The notes beneath the pieces are model-generated. The model saw nothing but the letters and a program-made list of their open reading frames with translations, had not been told where the DNA came from and ran no database searches. A program made the position numbers and the translations under genes. Below are positions 1,466 to 43,264 of a DNA stretch of 64,000 bases, in pieces; within the stretch, counting starts at the first letter, position 1, and each line of letters opens with the position of its first letter. Source of the DNA: Candidatus Multivorans sp. (GTDB taxonomy: Bacteria; Acidobacteriota; Thermoanaerobaculia; Multivoradales; Multivoraceae); NCBI GenBank assembly GCA_965224025.1, contig OZ245033.1:1248001-1312000 (forward strand). Direction: 5' to 3'.

Positions 1466-2377
1466 ATGCGGGCACTCTCCAAGGGGGGCCGCTTCGCCGC
1501 TGCCGGGCGCGGCCCCATTGTCTCCCTCCCGTACCGTGCTGCGGCGCGGCCTTGGATCCTGGCGCACTGCGGTGCTGCTCCGGCTGTGTTCGGCGGGCTC
1601 GGCTCGTCGGCCGAGGCGCAGAGTTGTACGCCTCCGGCGTTCTGGAATCCGTTCAATCCTGCCGGCGGACGCTGCGAAGTCCACCTGTGCGCCGACGGCT
1701 ACACGCAGAGCGGCAACCTCTGCTACCTGAACGGGACGTTTGCGGCCTATGCGGCCTCGTGTCCGGTTGGTTGGGGGGTCAGGAGTGTCGTGTACAACGG
1801 CAACTACCACAGCATGCGCTGCGTCGATCCATCGGACGCTGAACCGCCATCGCCGCCGCCGACACCAGCGCTCTCCGTGCCGGGCATTCCCAACTTCAGG
1901 CTGCCGTCCGCGGGCGTCGTCAACACGGTGTTTCCCGCCGCGACGGGAGGCACGCCGCCGACGCCCCCGCCGACGACGCCTCCGCCTCCGCCACCCCCGG
2001 TGCCGCGGACTCCCGGCAGAGAGGACCATAGTGGCGTCGACATTCAAGGGAACGACGGCGACCCCGTGTACGCTTGGCGGGGAGGCAGGGTAGGCTTGGT
2101 TTCCAACCCATACTGTGGCAATGGGGTGGACCTACACCACAGCGACGGCACCGAGACTCGCTACTGCCACTTCAACGCTCCGTCTTCGCTCCCTGGGCAC
2201 GACAACCGCGTGCGTGCGGGGTCTCTCATCGGTAACGTAGGCAGATCGGGCAGGGCGACAGGGTTTCATGTACATGTGACCCACACCTTGGCGAGCGGTA
2301 CGAAGATCGAGTATTTCTCGGCTCTTCCAGCCAGTGGACGGCCGACAGCAGAGCAACTCGACGAGAATGGATGCTGA
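1466..2377 (+). CDS. Secreted Cys-rich / Pro-rich protein with C-terminal M23 peptidase domain (polymorphic M23 copy A)
   Basis: GGAGG at 1454-1458 before the ATG; HSGVD...YCH...HVH zinc motifs; segment ALSVPGIPNFRLPSAGVVNTVFPAATGG almost identical to the N-terminus of the protein starting at 31794. Confidence 0.82.
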   Translation: MRALSKGGRFAAAGRGPIVSLPYRAAARPWILAHCGAAPAVFGGLGSSAEAQSCTPPAFWNPFNPAGGRCEVHLCADGYTQSGNLCYLNGTFAAYAASCPVGWGVRSVVYNGNYHSMRCVDPSDAEPPSPPPTPALSVPGIPNFRLPSAGVVNTVFPAATGGTPPTPPPTTPPPPPPPVPRTPGREDHSGVDIQGNDGDPVYAWRGGRVGLVSNPYCGNGVDLHHSDGTETRYCHFNAPSSLPGHDNRVRAGSLIGNVGRSGRATGFHVHVTHTLASGTKIEYFSALPASGRPTAEQLDENGC

Positions 2378-3585
2378 CGATGAGAACCGTAATCTTCGCT
2401 GCTCTTCTGACGCTGACGGCCTGGGCGGCTCGTGCGACCGATGAAGGCGCCTTGCTGCCTCAGGGCAACCTCCTCGGTTTCGGCTGCTGCCTCATCACCG
2501 ACTCGGGACACGCGGTTGTCGGCCTCGACTTTCCTGACGTTCGCGGCCGGATGTCCGTCATGATTTGGAAGGGCGGAGAGCCCCGAACACAGACGCTCGA
2601 TCTTGGAGGAAAATGGCTGGCGCTACTTCCCGATGATCGTGTTCTGATGTACGGCTACAAGCTCGTCGACGGCGTCGATCCCCATGCGGACTCGTACACA
2701 CATGGCGACGCGTTCTTCGTCCATCAGGTCTATCGGATCAGGGGATCGGGGCTCCAGCTCGAGCAGGAGTTCCTCGAGCGTACGGACGTCGAGATGGGTT
2801 ACACCAGAATCGCGGGCGATCTCAAGACCTGGGTGAGAATGGAGAACCTCCACCGGGAAGCTCCGAACGGGCATATGGTCTATGGAAGACACTTCGCCAT
2901 CGGGACGACCAAGTCGGGGAAGACGCGGCGTTCGGAGGCATTGGAACTCTATCCGGCCACTCTACGTGACGACGACATAACGGCCTTCGAGATCGTGGAT
3001 TCGGACGGGCCGATCCTGCTCGCGTCCTACGCGGCCGACCTCTTCCTGATCCGATTTCGCGACTACGGAGTGGATTCGCGGCCGGTCGACCTCTTGCGGC
3101 ATGTCGTACATCCACGCGGCGGCGAGTTGGATGTTGTGTGGCAGTCCGAGGACCGTGTGCTGTGGGCGCGGAAGGGAGACGAGTGGCTGGCCTACGACCT
3201 GTGGAATGTCCGATACGAGCTTGCCGTTCCGGAGGTGCCGTTCCTTCGGCGGTCCGCCCATGGCTCGCCGCACCCGATTCGGGGCTTCGTCGAGATAGAG
3301 AGGGACGGGAGCCGGTTTCGCGTGAGGCACTCGTGGCAAAGTCCGCAGTTTGAGAACTGGCGGGAGGAACATGTTTCGGAACGGCGGAGTGGCCCGCTGC
3401 CGGTAGCGGTGAGCCCTAACGGCCGTCGTGCGTTGGTGCTGGAGCGCCGGAGTACCGAACAAGGCGAAGCCGTCACTTATGCGAGCAGGTTTGGATTGGA
3501 CCTCGCGCCGGTCGTTCCGCCCGTCCCAGCCGCTGCAGGCGAGGCGGACGGGAAGAAGGAAGCGCAACCGCAAGCAGAGCACTGA
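2371..3585 (+). CDS. Secreted ~400-aa partner of M23 copy A (possible beta-propeller; candidate immunity/accessory protein)
   Basis: Overlaps the M23 stop; signal peptide MRTVIFAALLTLTAWAARA; paralog of 28754..29983 (WQSxxxVLWA, AYxLW, VSPNGR, VTY...GLDL.PV.PPV). Confidence 0.75.
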   Translation: MLTMRTVIFAALLTLTAWAARATDEGALLPQGNLLGFGCCLITDSGHAVVGLDFPDVRGRMSVMIWKGGEPRTQTLDLGGKWLALLPDDRVLMYGYKLVDGVDPHADSYTHGDAFFVHQVYRIRGSGLQLEQEFLERTDVEMGYTRIAGDLKTWVRMENLHREAPNGHMVYGRHFAIGTTKSGKTRRSEALELYPATLRDDDITAFEIVDSDGPILLASYAADLFLIRFRDYGVDSRPVDLLRHVVHPRGGELDVVWQSEDRVLWARKGDEWLAYDLWNVRYELAVPEVPFLRRSAHGSPHPIRGFVEIERDGSRFRVRHSWQSPQFENWREEHVSERRSGPLPVAVSPNGRRALVLERRSTEQGEAVTYASRFGLDLAPVVPPVPAAAGEADGKKEAQPQAEH

Positions 3586-24548: not shown

Positions 24549-26117
<1,569 letters not shown>

Positions 26118-26139
26118 GCCACCGCCCCGAGGACCAGCG

Positions 26140-26415
26140 GTGAAGTCAGCCTACGAGAGAGCTCTCGAGAAGCTGGAGAGCAGCGGCATCGCCGCGCCCC
26201 AGCGGGATGCGCTGGACGAAGACCAGCGCCGGCGCATCGAGGACGAACGGACCCGCCACCAGGCGAAGGTCGCCGAACTCGAGATCCTGCACCAGAAGAA
26301 CCTGTCCCCCGATCCGGCCAAGCGGCACCAGGAAGAAGAGAACTACCGCGCCGAGAAGCGACGGCTCGCCGAGCGACTCGAGTCGAAGGTCGAACGCATT
26401 CGCCGCGGCGACTGA
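26140..26415 (+). CDS. Small coiled-coil hypothetical protein
   Basis: VKSAYERALEKL...AKVAELEIL; follows the mutase gene. Confidence 0.6.
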   Translation: MKSAYERALEKLESSGIAAPQRDALDEDQRRRIEDERTRHQAKVAELEILHQKNLSPDPAKRHQEEENYRAEKRRLAERLESKVERIRRGD

Positions 26416-26464
26416 GCCAGGCAGCCGGCGATCAATGTGTACGTCCAGAATCTCGTTCTTTGCT

Positions 26465-26719
26465 TCATCTTCCTGGCGGCTCGCCTGGCTCCTCAGGCGG
26501 CGCTACGGCTCCGGCCTTCTCCTGGTCTGGTTTGGAAGACCTCTCTGATCCATCCGTCGCAGCCCGTGGCTCCTCCCGTCCTCCCTTCGGCCCAACCTTC
26601 AGCCACGGCATGACCGCTTGATCCGCAGCGATCTCCGCTTCCAGACCAGGCTCGATCAGAGGCATCGGCGGAACGAGCGTCAGCGCGACGAGCTCCGCAT
26701 AGGTCCGGCTCTCCCCTTC
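26465..26719 (-). pseudogene. Remnant C-terminus of a third M23-partner paralog
   Basis: In frame behind the TAG at 26720: EGESRTYAELVALTLVPPMPLIEP resembles QGEAVTYASRFGLDLAPVVPPVP and DSESVTYLRRSGLDLVPVRPPVE. Confidence 0.5.
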
Positions 26720-28551
26720 CTAGCGAAGCAGCAGACTCTCGCCGAACCGCACGCCGATTGGCAGTCCCTGGCTGTCTCTGACGACCTCGGCGATCGTGCC
26801 GTGGTCGTCGCTCGCTTCGTCGAACCGGGCAGCAAAGAGCGCCGGGTCAACGCAACCGCCGGGCCGAGTCCGCAACCCATGGTGTTCGAGCTCGTCTCCC
26901 ACGCTCCCCCGGTCGCATGCGTCGAGCGGAAACCTCCGGTACGCCTCGGTCCGGGATCCTCCCCGGTCGTCCGAAATCCGAAGGCCCTCGGAGCTGATGA
27001 CGGTCGTCACCGTCATCGTCTGGCCGAGAACCTCGGTGAATTCACGCGACGCGAACTTCCCGTTGAGTTCGAGCTGGCGACTACTGTCGCGCCAGATCGT
27101 GTAGTGCATGTGATCTCCGCGCGAGTTTCCGCTGTTATTGGCGGTCCCAATCTGCTGGAAGGCCGCGACCGTATCTTCGACCTCAACACCGACGGTGTGC
27201 AGGTGGAGAAAGACGTGTTCCCTTCCAGCGGAGTCCACGATCCGCACGAAGTTCCCGTTAGGCGGGTATGTAGTCGCGAACGTTCGAGTATCCGGGTCCC
27301 AAGCGTTCGTGCCGTGGCCGCTCCCGGTCTCCGTCACACGTCCAGAAACTGGCGCCATCACAGCATCGCCCCGAGATGCACGAACATCGATGCCGCGATG
27401 AGACGGCCTTGCCGTGTTGCGACCTCCGTGGTCCGAACCGAGTGCGCGGTTGTCTTCCAGAGGGTTAGAAGAGACCCTCTCCGAGTTGACAAGTGAACTG
27501 GCATAGCAGGCGTCTATGGCGTCATCAGCCGGGTCGGTTCCGCCGTCGCGGTCATCATCGCCGCCACCGCCGCCGCCACCACCACCATCACCGCCGTCGC
27601 CGCCGTACCCATCACCCTGCCCACCAAGAGGAATGACGACCTCGATGCAAGAGCCTTCGATGACGATCCCGTCCTCCTCCTCGCACAAGAGCACTACGAT
27701 GCGTGGAGGACCACCCGCCAGCGGCGTCGCGACGTAGGTCACGGTCTCCGTAGCCGTCACGGTCAGGGAGTAGTCCCCGGGGCCGGGGTCGTACGGGTAC
27801 ACCACGACGCTGTGATTCCCCGCCGCCAGGTCGTCGCTCCAGGAGTCGTCCAGCGTGCCCCAGCGGTTCGTGCAGCGGCTGCTGCCTACACGGCAGTCGA
27901 AGTCGATCGTCAGGCCCGTCAGGGCGACCTCCACTTCGGCGGTCCCGGAGAGCGTGAAGCCGTGGGTCTGACCGGTCGAGACGCCCGTTCTGCTCACGTC
28001 GACCAGGGTCGTAACCCTGGTTTCGGTTCCGGTGCTGCCGCCGGTGCTCGGCGCCTGCACACCGATGGTGAGCGTGTAGTTCCCCGAGCCGCCGCCGTAC
28101 GGATACACCACGATCTTGTGATCGCCAGCATCGAGCGTGCCGCTCCATGAATCGTCCGCCGTGCCGCCATGGTTCGTGCAGAGATTGCCCGAAACCGGGC
28201 AGTCGAAGTCGGTCGTCATTCCGGTCAACTCTATCGACACCTCGGCGCGGTGGGACAGCGTGAGCGGATACGTCCTTGAACTCGACACGTTCACGCCCGT
28301 CTTCACGATCGGGCCGGTTGTCGGCGGCGGCGGCGGCGGTGGAGGTGGAGGCGGCGGCGGCGGTGGCGGCGGCACCGGGGCCGCGACGACCATAGTGAAC
28401 GTGACTGAATCGGTCGCGCCTGCGCTGTCCGAGACGCTGTACGTGATCGTGTAGGTGGTGTCGATCAGGACCGTCGGCAGCGCTCCCTTGGCCCGCCGCG
28501 TTGACGACGCGAACGCGGTCCCCGGAGGAAGGCCGGCCAGACTATAGGTCG
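26720..28551 (-). pseudogene. 5'-truncated orphan cassette of the polymorphic M23 protein (copy C)
   Basis: Homology to copy B starts abruptly at TYSLAGLPPG (~28551); no signal peptide; first ATG at 28393; HRGID...FLH...HMH M23 motifs. Confidence 0.78.
27723..28348. repeat. ~626-bp direct repeat (copy 1), encoding two PPC-like domains
   Basis: Matches 30752-31377 at offset 3029; only one mismatch noticed by eye (28208 G vs 31237 A). Confidence 0.92.
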
Positions 28552-28753
28552 GTATCGTCGAATCGGAACTCGATCCTGAGTCAATCGTCCGTGTAGTGCA
28601 CCAGGGAACGCAACTCAGTAGCCTCGGTTCCGGCCGCTCGGACCGTTCGCCACACGGGGCCCTCGCCCATCTCTCCGGCCCGTGCTGCCGCGAATGATGA
28701 CGTCTCGCCGTGGCTCCGCCGACCAGCTAGCCGGACATGCCAACAGCCAAACC

Positions 28754-29983
28754 TCATTCTTGCACCTTACTTCCGGGCGCCTGCTCTTCCTGTTCCCCGG
28801 CAGACGCGGCCTCTACCGGTGGACGGACCGGAACAAGATCCAAGCCGGACCGGCGGAGGTAGGTCACGCTCTCACTGTCTGCAGAGCGGCCGTTCTCGAG
28901 AACCGCCGAATGACGCCCGTTGGGACTCACCAACACGTCAATCCCGATCCCGCCACTAGGCGGCGAACCCGGAGTCCAGGCCGAAGCGTGGCGCTCCTCA
29001 AAGAGAGTCCACGGTTCACGCCACAAGTGCTCGATGCGGTAGCCGTCCTTCCCGTGCAGGACCCTGGCTGCCCCACGTTCGGCATGAGGCCTCCAACCAT
29101 CCTTGGTATCCAGTTCCCAGAACGGAGCGTTGGGGAACTCAGACAGGCCCAGGTCCCAGAGATGGTACGCGCGAAGCCTGCGACCGTCCTCGGCCCAGAG
29201 CACTTGTTCCTGGCTCTGCCAAGTGAAGTTCCATCGTGTCGACCCTTGAAGCACTGGCACTACATGCGGAGACGCTCCTTGGCTGAAATGCACGATGAAG
29301 CCGCCGCCACTCCACGGGACAAGCACCACAGGGCCACTCGTATCGAGGAACCAAAAATGACCCCACATCGGCAGCTCGCCCTTGTCCGAGTTTGGGAAAT
29401 CCACCAGTTCGACGCGTCCTGATGCCCCCGGCTTCCGAGCCGTCCTACCAAACGCGAACGTCACTCTGGCGCTTGTTTCATCCACTCTGCCGGCGTAGCC
29501 CCACATTCTGCCATCGCGAGAGACGATGGGAGCCACGCACTCTCTGCATTCCGGATCGTCCTCCCGGCTGTTCCAGCCCCATCGGAGTCGCACTGCGTCG
29601 CCCCGAACTTCAACTATGTCAAGCGTTCTTGCCGTGCGACCACCGATCGTCGGCCCACGCCACCCCGAAAGCAGAAGACGGCCGTCGCCTAGGAAGGTCG
29701 CCTGGTTGGTTCCCGAGTACGCTTCTCCAAGAGGGATTGCCTGAACCCGCTTCCGGCTCAAGCGAACCAGCGCCAAACGCCGTCCGGAGGACGCGAGCGA
29801 AGAGGCTCCAGCCTCTCCTACGGCATCGCCGTCAAGCGCCATTACTAGTTCTGTGCGACCGCTATCGTCCACAAGACCGCCAGCGTACCAGCTGCCCAAG
29901 GGAAGAGGCGTCACATCCGACGGCGACGCGGCAACGACCGTGGCGTAAACGGACCAACAGGCGACAGCAAAACCCAATGACAT
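28754..29983 (-). CDS. Secreted ~410-aa partner of M23 copy B (candidate immunity/accessory protein)
   Basis: AAGGAG RBS just after the M23 stop; signal-like MSLGFAVACWSVYATVVAA; paralog of 2371..3585. Confidence 0.75.
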   Translation of the reverse strand: MSLGFAVACWSVYATVVAASPSDVTPLPLGSWYAGGLVDDSGRTELVMALDGDAVGEAGASSLASSGRRLALVRLSRKRVQAIPLGEAYSGTNQATFLGDGRLLLSGWRGPTIGGRTARTLDIVEVRGDAVRLRWGWNSREDDPECRECVAPIVSRDGRMWGYAGRVDETSARVTFAFGRTARKPGASGRVELVDFPNSDKGELPMWGHFWFLDTSGPVVLVPWSGGGFIVHFSQGASPHVVPVLQGSTRWNFTWQSQEQVLWAEDGRRLRAYHLWDLGLSEFPNAPFWELDTKDGWRPHAERGAARVLHGKDGYRIEHLWREPWTLFEERHASAWTPGSPPSGGIGIDVLVSPNGRHSAVLENGRSADSESVTYLRRSGLDLVPVRPPVEAASAGEQEEQAPGSKVQE

Positions 29984-29996
29984 AGTGCTTCTCCTT

Positions 29997-31794
29997 CTAT
30001 TCTTCGCAACTGCCGGGATCGTTCTCATCGAAGGTGAAGTTCTCGTGAGGCAGAACGTCCAGCGGATTGCGACGTACTCCGTTGCTATCGCGGTGTCCCA
30101 GGTGCAAGTGGAATCCACCTGAGCTCCCGGGTTGCGTAAAGCCCCCAGCAGCATCGTTCGTCAAGCCGTAACCGTCGTAGCCGACGATCGCCCCTGCCTC
30201 TACTTGGCCCGTAACTTGGTGATCGGGCAGATTCGACACGTGGCAGAATACAAAGTAACTCCCGTCGTCCAGCGTGAGTTGCACGTAAGGCCGCCCGCAT
30301 GAACGCTCTTGGCCCGCGACTGACGGCCTTGTCACAGTGCCCGCCGCCGGGGCACGGAACGCGCTCCGTCCGTTCGTCTGGATATCAACTCCGCTGTGAG
30401 GGTACGTAGTTCCATCGCTCCCCGTCCTCGTTGCTCCATAGCGGTCGCCAGCGTCGAGGTTCCAGCCGCGGCAGTCTATCTCGTCTGCGAGTGTTCCCAG
30501 GGCACCGTGGGTCGGTGTCGGCCCGGGAGTACCACCACCACCGCCACCTCCATCACCTCCATCGCCGCCGTCCCCAGGCCCCGGAGTCCCTCACCGGGCC
30601 AGCACCGGGCGGCGGGCCCGGGTCGTCGCCCGGATCGTCGCCCGTCACGGTGGTCACATCGACGTAGATGCCCTGACAGGTGTCTTCGATGGCGTTCCCT
30701 TCCTCGTCGGCATCGCAGATGCGGCCGACGAGTGTTGGGCCGCCAGCCAGGGGCGTCGCGACGTAGGTCACGGTCTCCGTAGCCGTCACGGTCAGGGAGT
30801 AGTCCCCGGGGCCGGGGTCGTACGGGTACACCACGACGCTGTGATTCCCCGCCGCCAGGTCGTCGCTCCAGGAGTCGTCCAGCGTGCCCCAGCGGTTCGT
30901 GCAGCGGCTGCTGCCTACACGGCAGTCGAAGTCGATCGTCAGGCCCGTCAGGGCGACCTCCACTTCGGCGGTCCCGGAGAGCGTGAAGCCGTGGGTCTGA
31001 CCGGTCGAGACGCCCGTTCTGCTCACGTCGACCAGGGTCGTAACCCTGGTTTCGGTTCCGGTGCTGCCGCCGGTGCTCGGCGCCTGCACACCGATGGTGA
31101 GCGTGTAGTTCCCCGAGCCGCCGCCGTACGGATACACCACGATCTTGTGATCGCCAGCATCGAGCGTGCCGCTCCATGAATCGTCCGCCGTGCCGCCATG
31201 GTTCGTGCAGAGATTGCCCGAAACCGGGCAGTCGAAATCGGTCGTCATTCCGGTCAACTCTATCGACACCTCGGCGCGGTGGGACAGCGTGAGCGGATAC
31301 GTCCTTGAACTCGACACGTTCACGCCCGTCTTCACGATCGGGCCGGTTGTCGGCGGCGGCGGCGGCGGTGGAGGTGGCGGCGGCGGAGGTGGCGGCGGGG
31401 GTGGCGGCGGCGGAGGTGGCGGAGGTGGCGGAGAAGCCGGGGGCCTCACGGTAGCGGTGAACGTGACTGAATCGGTCGCGCCTGCGCTGTCCGAGACGGT
31501 GTAGACGATCGTGTACGCGGTGTCGATCCAGACCGTCGGCAGAGTGCCGCTCGCAACGCGCGTCGAGGGCGAGAACGTGATCCCGGGCGGCAGCCCGGAC
31601 AGGCTGTACGTGTAAGGCGTCCTCCCGCCCGTTGCGGCGGGGAACACCGTGTTGACGACGCCCGCCGACGGCAGCCGGAAGTTGGGGATTCCCGGCAGGG
31701 ACAACGCCGTCCGGTCGGACGTTCGCGCCGAGAGAGGCGCTGTCGCGGCCAGAAGGGAAAAGAGCGACATTAGTGCGATGCCAAGGCGCTTCAC
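29997..31794 (-). CDS. Full-length polymorphic M23 protein (copy B): signal peptide, He_PIG/Ig-like domain, poly-Pro, 2x PPC-like, Gly linker, M23; frameshift near 30590
   Basis: GGAGGT RBS and GTG start at 31794; first frame stops at 30553; another frame from ~30590 gives GDGGDGGGGGGG...HSGVDIQ...FCH...HLH to the stop at 29997. Confidence 0.8.
30752..31377. repeat. ~626-bp direct repeat (copy 2)
   Basis: Near-identical to 27723-28348. Confidence 0.92.
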
Positions 31795-31820
31795 GGGTCT
31801 CACCTCCCGAGGTGAATCAC

Positions 31821-32051
31821 GAAGTAATGACGAATATCTGCACCTGTGCGGGGCAGAAATCGGCCAAAACGGCACGATTCGACCCGTGAAGAGACTCCGG
31901 GCTCGGTGGCAGCGCACGTTTCCGGCCCAGTACGGCCTCAGCTCGACCCAAAACGGCCCTCAGAACCCCCGCTCGCGTCGCGCCGCAGGCCGCCGACACC
32001 GATTCAAGGGGTTGACAAGTGCCGCTTCTCGGAAATAATCGTCATTATATG
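31821..32051. promoter_or_regulatory. Candidate invertible promoter segment bounded by inverted loxP-like recombination sites
   Basis: GTAA-tgacga-ATAT (31824-31837) and ATAA-tcgtca-TTAT (32035-32048) have reverse-complementary spacers; TTGACA (32012-32017)-16 bp-AATAAT (32034-32039) lies inside. Confidence 0.65.
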
Positions 32052-32121
32052 CTTTGTCAAGTCCAATGCCCCACTGCCTTCCGGAGCGAGCACACCTTCC
32101 GGATCAAGCGCCTGCAGGCCG

Positions 32122-33053
32122 ATGAGAAAGCTGCTCCGAAGGGCACTCACGGCAGCTAGGTTGAAGTCGCTCAAGGCAGCGTTCTCGGACTCCTACTCAC
32201 CGAACACTCACAAGGCCTACGGCCGGGCGGTCGAGCGCTTCGCCGCGTTCCTGAAGGGCCGCGCGGCAGACGACGATTCCATCGCGGCCTTTCTGAAGGC
32301 TGAGGCGGAGCGCGGTCTGGCGCCGGCGTCGCTCTCGATCCTGGCCGCCGCGATCGGCGCCGCTGCGAGCTCAGCAGGGGTCAAGGACCCGCGCGGCCCC
32401 ATCACCCGCCGAACGCTCAGGAAGCTGAAACGAAACACGCCGCCCGGGGCCGCGGTCAGGTCGAGGGCCTGAGGCGGGAAACCGTGGTCGCCGCCGCCAG
32501 CCTCGCAGCGGACGAGGGCACCGCCCTTGGCCTGCGCGACGCCGCGCTGCTGCGCCTGGGCAGCGACGGACTTCTGAGGATCAGCGAGCTGGTCGCCGTA
32601 CAGGTGGACGATCTCGGTCCGAGGGAAGACGGGAGCGGCGTCCTGGCTCTGCCCAGAAGCAAGACCGACCAGGAAGGCGACGGCTCCACCCTCTACGTCT
32701 GCCGGGAGACGATGGCGGCCGTCGCCGCGTGGCTGAAGGTCTCCGGGATCACGGCCGGTTCGCTTTTCCGCCGCGTTCTCCGGAACGGGGTCGGAGGCGA
32801 CGCACCCTTGAGCGGGTCCGCCGTGCGAGCGATCATCCAGCGGCGGGCCAGGGCCGCCGGCGCCACCGGACGCGTGAGCGGACACTCTCTGCGCGTCGGC
32901 AGCGCCCAGTCCCTGGTCGCCGCCGGCGCCTCCACCGCGGAGCTCATGCAGGCCGGAAGATGGACCGACGCCGCGATCGCGACCCGCTATGCCGCGAACG
33001 AACTGGCGGGGCGAGGCGCCGTCGCCCGCTACTTCGAGGACGACGATCCTTAG
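32122..33053 (+). CDS. Cre-like tyrosine recombinase, frameshifted at ~32433-32435
   Basis: N-terminal SPNTHKAY; second frame RGRGQ...RDAALL...LLRISE, RSKTDQ, GHSLRVG, GRW, TRY gives the R-K-H-R-W-Y set; one base is missing in an AAA run. Confidence 0.88.
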
Positions 33054-33068
33054 CCGCTTGGGCTACGA

Positions 33069-36308
<3,240 letters not shown>

Positions 36309-42638: not shown

Positions 42639-42979
42639 GGGGCGCATCCTAGTCGGCGGCGTCACGAGGCGACAGACGATGCTCCGGTCGCCTCCCCCGA
42701 CCCTGATCCGGGCTCGCACGAGATCGTCGGTGTAGTCGACACGGAACTGGTGGTTTCGACTCCTGCCGCCATTGGCATGGACGATGCGCCAGACGTCCGA
42801 AGTCGTCTCGAGGGGCACGAGCGCGTAGGCCCGCCACTGAATCCCCCTCGGCACGGCAAACGCCGCCCGCAGAGCGGGCCCAACTTTTGGGTCTCTTCGA
42901 GGGTCGAATCGTGCCGTTTGGCCTGCATAGAATCGGCACGGTGCGCGGCGATCCGACTCAAGCCGTCGGCAAAGAGGCG

Positions 42980-43264
42980 ATGAAGGAACCGGATCGACGA
43001 GCACTCACCGCGGCGCTGCCGCGGTCGCTTCGGACCGAGTTCAGCGACACCTACACGCCGAACACGCACAAGGCCTACGACCGGGCGGAAGAGGCCCTCC
43101 GCGTGGGCGCCGCTCAGTCCCTGGTCGCCGTCGGCGCCTCCACCGTGGAGCTCATGCAGGCCGGAAGATGGACCGACGCCGCGACCGCGACCCGCTATGG
43201 CGCGAACGAACTGGCGGGGCGAGGCGCCGTCGCACGGTACTTCAAGGACGAGGAACGCGAGTAG
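42980..43264 (+). pseudogene. Internally deleted paralog of the 32122-33053 tyrosine recombinase
   Basis: RRALTAA...FSDTYTPNTHKAYDRA fused in frame to LRVGAAQSLVAVGASTVELMQAGRWTDAATATRYGANELAGRGAVARYF. Confidence 0.88.

Follow-up and report, generated by a model that had tools for sequence, protein, structure and literature searches.

We analysed a stretch of 64,000 nucleotides (the window, by which we mean this whole stretch) from Candidatus Multivorans sp., an acidobacterium, corresponding to positions 1,248,001 to 1,312,000 of contig OZ245033.1 (assembly GCA_965224025.1). At the 3' end of carB the window contains a 6.7-kb island with two copies of a gene for a putative exported peptidase effector, intact or fragmentary genes for secreted partner proteins, and a Cre-like recombinase gene. 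The genes of the array lie on the minus strand, flanked on one side by methylmalonyl-CoA mutase (MCM) and a small conserved gene and on the other side by carB. A sequence-only reading of the locus had seen in it a candidate polymorphic effector system, with cognate partners, an orphan cassette and its own recombinase. In what follows, scaffold means the part of the effector that precedes the peptidase domain, the M23 peptidase domains are divided into types A, B and C, and the partner families are called A, B and C. The features of the island are the following.

26429..33103, no strand: inserted island, between the conserved small gene downstream of MCM and the carB 3' end

30553..31794, minus: copy 1 scaffold open reading frame (ORF), with signal peptide, He_PIG, 27 prolines, PPC1, PPC2, TPLAGGP junction, Cys hairpin and the start of the linker, ending at an out-of-frame stop

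30591..30601, minus: frameshift zone in the conserved linker motif PPPGxGPGEGxPGPG, with net 2 bases fewer than the intact G016 effector (DNA alignment)

29997..30590, minus: copy 1 M23 domain, type A, a 198-codon open frame without a start of its own, with HxxxD and HxH motifs intact

28754..29983, minus: partner A, 409 aa, with Sec signal peptide and predicted beta-propeller, the sole intact gene of the array

26720..28726, minus: copy 2, orphan cassette, with diverged He_PIG, 17 prolines, PPC1, PPC2, hairpin, Gly linker and M23 type C

30751..31350, minus: near-identical, putative recombination tract, shared with 27722-28321 at 598 of 600 bases and with doubled read depth

28545..28670, minus: partner-C gene fragment containing stops, 90% identical to residues 360-401 of G016 partner C (tblastn)

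26501..26719, minus: partner-A C-terminal remnant, similar to the P0018 tail (74% over 73 residues)

32122..33053, plus: Cre-like tyrosine recombinase, split near 32433, with a SAM-like N-terminal part to 32472 and a catalytic part at 32484-33053

Copy 1 is the lead gene of the array. Its likely start is a GTG at 31794, preceded by GGGAGGTG. Every part that the sequence-only reading had listed for it (signal peptide, Ig-like domain, poly-Pro stretch, two PPC-like domains, Cys hairpin, Gly linker and M23) was detected; He_PIG is recognised by Pfam with an E value of 1e-08, and the hairpin, of the form Cys-x12-Cys, is followed by a Pro/Gly-rich linker. The gene had also been called full-length, and this does not stand, as it is not one ORF. 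The scaffold ORF ends at the stop at 30553, while the M23 domain lies in a different frame, open from 30590 to 29997, and 2 bases are missing within the linker motif with respect to the intact G016 homologue. The same motif, PPPGxGPGEGxPGPG, recurs in many homologues. In run X3, which comes from a relative and from another study, 147 different letters replace 190 between 30546 and 30737; this length difference of 43 is one more than a multiple of three and would alter the frame. Other, independent genomes also have frameshifted effector or partner genes (L020:4159-5989, L022:5557-5971, L015:5989-7251 and L027:5926-7100). A frameshift of L020 falls in the same linker region, on a contig whose name (NODE_..._cov_...) points to assembly from short reads. 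Two explanations offer themselves: loci of this kind often decay, or the linker slips easily.

The second copy lacks a signal peptide and has no start codon before 28393, in agreement with the 5' truncation previously described for it. Its homology to intact effectors spans 27062-28636. At the 3' end, 9 residues short of the normal end, the sequence after WRDSSRQ (~27062) is replaced by unrelated sequence, and 343 nt (26720-27061) separate this cut from the remnant of partner A. The M23 domain of copy 2 was said to be very different from that of copy 1, and it is indeed too unlike it for tblastn to link the two at 1e-4. In contrast to these ends, the middle of both copies is almost the same sequence, as had been noticed. 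The tract of 600 bases, with a longest exact run of 485 nt, covers the two PPC domains. Upstream of the tract, 11-45 of 50 positions are identical per 50-nt block, the low block being due to a poly-Pro length difference with 33 gap columns, and on the other side identity drops to 29 of 50 immediately past YVATPLAGGP, which is the point where it had been seen to stop.

A repeat of this kind raises the question of whether the duplication or the frameshift could be an artefact of assembly or sequencing, the outcome that would have undone the whole proposal. The frameshift sits in G-runs and the genome is in 3 contigs, from what we infer to be a long-read build. Against this, an independently built 2375-nt contig (runs X1 and X2) equals 28407-30781 with 0 differences and 0 gaps, frameshift included, and terminates at the start of the repeat, where depth approximately doubles (19.5 to 42.2 and 51.7 to 105.8 in runs X1 and X2), though X1 and X2 are runs of one sample and possibly the source of the assembly. 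Besides, the large housekeeping genes adjoining the island are intact. Therefore, the duplication and the frameshift are present in the data and not made by the assembler, and we regard an artefact as very improbable.

The scaffold was next followed across relatives. Out of 66 scaffold homologues, 30 contain PF01551 (M23), 8 contain PF14521 (aspzincin) and 28 contain neither. When the tails of 14 of these last 28 were read, 8 proved to have HExxH domains (5 HEMLH, 3 HEGLH), 4 showed scaffold or FN3-like sequence only within the last 260 residues read, one was a deletion fusion into a partner-B signal peptide and one was a domain without assignment. The C-termini thus vary among M23 types A, B and C, aspzincin and HExxH domains, and do not represent one conserved M23. 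As for the M23 domains themselves, PF01551 scores of 31.7 (copy 1), 59.5 (copy 2) and 61.7 bits, against a cut-off of 28.7, together with the HxxxD and HxH motifs, place them in peptidase family M23. All 14 aligned domains have the Zn/catalytic residues H15, D19, H111 and H113, and three cysteines are invariant or nearly so in the same set, as expected of exported enzymes.

Two relatives are particularly informative about how these C-termini are combined. Genome G015 has, at the same chromosomal site, an intact 658-aa effector with an M23 domain of the copy 2 type, followed by a 450-aa secreted partner B, and an intact 387-aa recombinase. In G016, an orphan cassette made of the end of PPC2, a TPLGGGP junction, the hairpin and the Gly linker is joined to an aspzincin and not to an M23 domain (PF14521, 30.8 bits against a cut-off of 30), and a 456-aa secreted partner C comes next. 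Moreover, effector 2 of G016 combines the hairpin and linker of copy 1 with an M23 domain of type C, the type of copy 2. Since copies 1 and 2 diverge from TPLAGGP on, this mixture points to exchange at two or more junctions. Arrays in which a full-length first gene is followed by N-terminally truncated cassettes are also found in L014 and L017, so that orphan modules sharing the homology tract are known from copy 2 in the window, from L014 and L017, and from the aspzincin orphan of G016. One conserved N-terminal region with alternative C-terminal domains is therefore found both in the two window copies and among the 66 homologues. On sequence grounds, the C-terminus is truly exchangeable, with the scaffold decoupled from the peptidase and the partner travelling with the latter. 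The polymorphic layout that had been proposed (conserved N-terminus, variable C-terminal enzyme, downstream cognate gene, orphan cassettes) holds, and is stronger than proposed, aspzincin and HExxH types being part of it too.

Further proteins that consist of He_PIG, PPC and FN3-like modules, and in which no enzyme domain can be recognised, are encoded elsewhere in the genome of the window, at G000:C1:1212894-1215465, ~33 kb before the window, and at C1:2226618-2228228 (a 536-aa ORF). Therefore, the scaffold modules belong there to a wider family of surface-type proteins.

The partner of copy 1, preceded by a GAAGGAG ribosome-binding site, corresponds to the secreted protein of about 410 aa that the sequence-only reading had noticed, and the remnant of another partner that it had seen at the far end of the array is the P0018-like tail. 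No family was assigned by Pfam and NCBIfam to partners A, B and C or to 8 distant relatives of partner A. The structural model of partner A (pLDDT 79.9, pTM 0.78) is all-beta, with 27 strands, and its Foldseek neighbours are all beta-propellers, at modest template modelling (TM) scores of 0.3-0.46; a beta-propeller is thus the predicted fold. The Atlas model of partner B, of low confidence (pLDDT 0.55), also has beta-propeller neighbours, at TM ~0.5. Families A and B may share a fold, which we give as a lead only; at the sequence level, hhalign detected no relationship between partners A and B or A and C (probability 0.4%). Prediction of the complex between residues 22-390 of partner A and M23 type A or B gave scores of 0.01-0.02 against a mark of 0.32, uninformative either way. 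We considered partner A as a lipoprotein and rejected this in favour of an ordinary Sec signal peptide, since a strict lipobox is present in 7 of 23 sequences and the hydrophobic stretch runs past the Cys. A lone C-terminal fragment of partner A, with 45-53% identity and one internal TGA, lies at G000:C1:3943607-3943927, far from any effector.

Partner A and the M23 domain are found together well beyond copy 1. Of the 25 partner-A copies whose N-terminus is complete and which have 450 nt or more of sequence before them, 18 sit no more than 200 nt downstream of an M23 domain; the M23 profile for this count was built from the same loci, and Pfam confirms M23 in the proteins scanned. The window itself holds another such pair outside the island, which the sequence-only reading had overlooked, as it had the partner-C fragment.

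1466..3585, plus: second, intact pair, a 303-aa secreted M23 protein (type B, with the stretch PGIPNFRLPSAGVVNTVFPAATGG) and a 404-aa partner A

In 12 pairs, the identities among M23 domains and those among partners are correlated (Mantel r 0.916, a value reached by 0 of 9999 permutations). Pair identities go down to 24-26% within a single genus whose MCM proteins are 84-92% identical. The correlation shows that M23 and partner A move and diverge as a unit, and no more than that. Other enzyme types have other downstream genes: partner B lies behind M23 type C in G015 and at two places in G016, L014 has an M23 fragment with a partner-B gene after it, and aspzincin goes with partner C. The downstream gene hence varies with the type of enzyme, and the co-variation of C-termini and partners that had been proposed as a check was observed, with three partner families, unrelated in sequence, tracking the enzyme types.

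The distribution of partner A is narrow. A word search found 22 proteins among 5.8 billion, and a profile search found 78 representative clusters among 1.84 billion. It is present in 27 of 42 genomes of the genus of the window, at 89 places and with 1-12 copies in each genome. A sample of 401 genomes from the phylum as a whole, with 227 genera, contained it in 6 genomes, every one of them from the genus of the window. Two to four partner-A genes stand in tandem in L054 (G048:C2) and L055 (G007:C10), where an M23 domain was not found, and, judging by coordinates alone, at G046:C1:225346-231146 and G003:C1:3649250-3654636.

Strict adjacency and co-divergence would suit any specific binder, and beta-propellers are generic interaction scaffolds. 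The partner could thus be a helper of the enzyme (a cognate periplasmic chaperone, a secretion adaptor or an activator) and not its inhibitor. We consider this improbable. Partner genes persist and multiply without an enzyme, as in the tandem arrays of L054, L055 and L015, which fits protection, and orphan cassettes retain their partner genes. In the window, intact partner A stands beside a broken effector, as expected of a retained immunity gene. A helper left with nothing to assist does not agree with this picture.

The island differs in base composition from its surroundings (G+C of 0.61-0.63 inside and 0.67-0.70 outside). The empty site of G010 aligns to window positions 26097-26428 and 33104-33462, with ~6 nt between the two flanks. 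In 5 of 5 complete or near-complete relatives fetched, neither effector nor partner nor recombinase was found at the 3' end of carB; in four of them (G010, G003, G001 and G014) MCM, the small gene and carB are side by side, and in G011 the flank is differently arranged and the site likewise empty. The site is filled, with the recombinase adjoining carB, in the window, G015, G016, L018 and L022. The carB gene of the window has lost its native stop and reads 7 codons into the island, and G016 has a carB 3' fragment between its two inverted islands, each with a recombinase. Consequently, the 6.7 kb are inserted DNA at the 3' end of carB, in a pattern typical of small integrative elements. Both island ends have an imperfect GCC(C)GGCGA word, which was examined as an att repeat and rejected as too short to count.

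The likeness to Cre of the divergently encoded recombinase, already recognised from the sequence, was borne out, while its integrity was not. An intact homologue of the gene gave 17 matches in the PDB, all of them Cre or Tre (E ~1e-19), and the window gene reaches 49.2 bits with Phage_integrase PF00589 (cut-off 27.1), the motifs LRISE, HSLR, GRW and TRY being readable in its translation. The Pfam matches Phage_int_SAM_1 and Phage_integrase fall into separate frames, and the intact 388-aa homologue from G016 aligns in two frames too, with residues 26-182 and then 183-387. Elsewhere in the genome there are remnants of the same kind of gene: a 125-aa ORF at window positions 42887-43264 (plus strand), ~10 kb from the island, which fuses both ends of the recombinase by internal deletion and is 87% identical to residues 334-387 of the G016 recombinase; C1:1461152-1461427; and C1:2368303-2368491, this last one beside a scaffold fragment.

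The recombinase had been presented as the system's own, serving to swap cassettes. It is linked to effector arrays at carB in the window, G015, G016, L018 and L022, copies are also near cassettes in L019, L023 and L052, its gene is divergent from the lead effector, the two inverted units of G016 have one recombinase each, and recombinase remnants elsewhere in the genome are next to scaffold fragments (C1:2368303-2368554). For a swapping role we found no direct support, and we think it unlikely. Long near-identical tracts are substrates for general homologous recombination, and the two copies in the window are direct repeats with just such a 600-nt tract. Beside the cassettes there are no short recombination sites, whether inverted or direct, and the pairs at 1466-3585, L021 and L027 have no recombinase. 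Moreover, the gene occupies the very edge of the insertion, the usual position of an integrase. The carB site, vacant in 5 relatives and occupied in 4, makes it more likely that the recombinase is an island integrase than a cassette shuffler. Features of an integron were not found: NCBIfam models of Xer and integron integrases gave 30-46 bits against cut-offs of 220-335, nor are there short repeats at the cassette boundaries (attC models were not run).

Taken together, we hypothesize that the island, with its Cre-like integrase, is part of a genus-restricted polymorphic system of Sec-exported peptidase effectors with cognate partners, which is decaying in this genome; we give this reading a probability of roughly 0.6. 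A Sec signal peptide would export the effector, whose scaffold consists of He_PIG, the poly-Pro stretch, two PPC domains, the Cys hairpin and the PPPGxGPGEGxPGPG/Gly-rich linker. After the linker comes an exchangeable C-terminal metallopeptidase, M23 A in copy 1, M23 C in copy 2, and M23 B, aspzincin/M35 or another HExxH domain in relatives, and each type is accompanied by a downstream gene of its own, which encodes a Sec-exported protein. The exported peptidase would cut peptidoglycan or another envelope target of competitors, while the partner would bind and block the cognate peptidase in the periplasm of the producer, thus acting as an immunity protein. Downstream cassettes, devoid of promoter and signal peptide, could replace the active C-terminus and its partner by homologous recombination across the PPC tract.

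The decay is directly visible. Frameshifts break the linker of copy 1 and the integrase, copy 2 has lost both its ends, and of two partner genes there are fragments only. As both the lead gene and the recombinase are frameshifted, the copy of the system found here is probably inactive.

Several points weigh against this hypothesis. With its lead effector and recombinase broken, the locus may do nothing in the organism now. What the data show directly is the architecture, the pairing, the co-divergence, the insertion polymorphism and the gene breaks; toxicity, the target, inhibition by the partner, the passage through the outer membrane and the role as integrase are inferred. A Sec signal peptide delivers an enzyme to the periplasm only, and export beyond the outer membrane is unexplained, given that a check for a type II secretion system gave a secretin-like gene below the GspD cut-off and no GspL. 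Even outside the cell, an M23 enzyme hardly reaches the peptidoglycan of diderm competitors. Linkage alone predicts some co-divergence of adjacent genes, so the correlation does not prove binding. Seven of the 25 partner-A copies have no M23 domain upstream, mostly in tandem partner arrays, plus one locus interrupted by insertion sequences. Finally, the search for att repeats at the two ends of the island gave nothing clear, with 10 nt as the longest word shared exactly.

The unexplained route to the peptidoglycan of another cell also speaks for a rival reading, in which the effector is a secreted degradative or host-matrix peptidase, and no antibacterial weapon. He_PIG, FN3 and PPC modules would then bind an external substrate, the M23, M35 or HExxH domains would digest proteins, and the partner, as a periplasmic inhibitor, would prevent self-damage in transit. 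All the C-terminal domains seen are metallopeptidases, with no nuclease or other cytoplasmic toxin among them, and the scaffold modules recur in non-enzymatic surface-type proteins of the same genome, such as the 536-aa PPC/He_PIG protein mentioned above. LasA-type M23 enzymes cut elastin, and the weaker matches of the M23 domain in the PDB include LasA and an M23 enzyme that is elastinolytic. The best PDB matches, by contrast, are peptidoglycan hydrolases of the LytM, lysostaphin and zoocin A type. Orphan cassettes, tandem partner arrays, a patchy multi-copy spread in one genus and very fast co-divergence are traits of conflict systems and not of nutrition, which makes a degradative role a doubtful explanation in our view.

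Among known systems, polymorphic toxins offer the general frame. The published definition of loci with orphan modules, as given in part of the article PMC4436062, fits this layout. In the parts of PMC3482391 (Zhang et al. 2012) and PMC4436062 (Jamet & Nassif 2015) compared here, polymorphic toxins share with our system an exported N-terminal region with C-termini swappable at a conserved junction, a cognate gene downstream, downstream cassettes that lack the N-terminus and keep a homology tract, and variation from strain to strain. They differ in that the He_PIG, PPC and Cys hairpin scaffold and the three partner families are not catalogued in those parts, and in that the toxins here would all be extracytoplasmic metallopeptidases. 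The terms M23, LytM, PPC, aspzincin and integrase have 0 occurrences in most of the main text of PMC3482391, supplements excluded, and that 2012 catalogue states that no beta-propellers had been encountered among immunity proteins.

The resemblance is closest to the Sec-dependent MafB islands. In the maf islands of Neisseria, according to the portion of PMC4436062 compared, MafB also has a Sec signal peptide in place of a dedicated secretion domain and the immunity gene (MafI) directly downstream, and there are also many orphan C-terminal cassettes on genomic islands at conserved chromosomal sites. MafB toxins, in turn, include predicted RNases and a deaminase, whereas peptidases are found here, with different partners, a Cre-like integrase on the island and an acidobacterial genus as host. 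DUF1020 (PF06255), which would mark MafB, is not among the Pfam families of the window effectors and 5 relatives. For the same proteins, Pfam lists no TPS/haemagglutinin or RHS/YD domains, and there is no transporter gene in the island, unlike what would be expected of contact-dependent inhibition (CDI) or Rhs systems.

M23 is also known as an antibacterial effector domain of type VI secretion systems (T6SS), acting in the periplasm and encoded next to immunity genes, as in Tpe4/Tse4 of A. baumannii (PMC6833914) and in WHIX effectors such as Awe1 (PMC12135965). As described in the parts of these articles compared, those effectors have no signal peptide, are delivered by VgrG or WHIX and have other partner families, whereas a Sec signal peptide is present here. 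Pfam lists no VgrG, PAAR, MIX or WHIX domain in our effectors (the genome was not searched for T6SS genes). A third comparison is with the class III bacteriocins lysostaphin and zoocin A, both among the PDB matches, which are likewise secreted M23 endopeptidases that lyse competitors. Their producers are protected by FemABX-like modification of the wall (lif/epr, zif) and are not known to rely on a binding protein. These bacteriocins have SH3b-type or other wall-targeting domains, are not known to have orphan cassettes and belong to Gram-positive hosts.

Literature searches, supplementary files not covered, found no description of this family. It is tempting to propose, at somewhat less than even odds, that one acidobacterial genus has evolved a polymorphic toxin system of its own, mobilised by a Cre-like integrase, in which all the warheads are extracytoplasmic metallopeptidases, immunity is conferred by hyper-diverged Sec-exported beta-propellers, and the hairpin and PPPGxGPGEGxPGPG linker serve as recombination junction and release site. 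If this were true, both its class of immunity proteins and its toxin repertoire would be uncatalogued for polymorphic toxins. Should the partners be immunity proteins, the system would add a new scaffold, peptidase-only warheads and three unannotated immunity families, at least one of them a beta-propeller, and would provide protein inhibitors specific for M23 and M35 peptidases. To our knowledge, no protein inhibitors of M23 enzymes have been reported. The phylum of the host is one in which interbacterial weapons are little studied. As the copy in the window is broken, the value lies in the family and not in this locus, the main interest being the unannotated partner families and the all-peptidase repertoire.

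Provided that the partners do confer immunity, the system would also illustrate how a small island carried by an integrase spreads and then decays into orphan immunity genes. Mobile-element genes are found beside cassettes in L023 and L039, and in L023 transposase-like repeats part the M23 gene from its partner. At L016:6053-7111, an ORF judged by eye to be relaxase-like lies beside a cassette.

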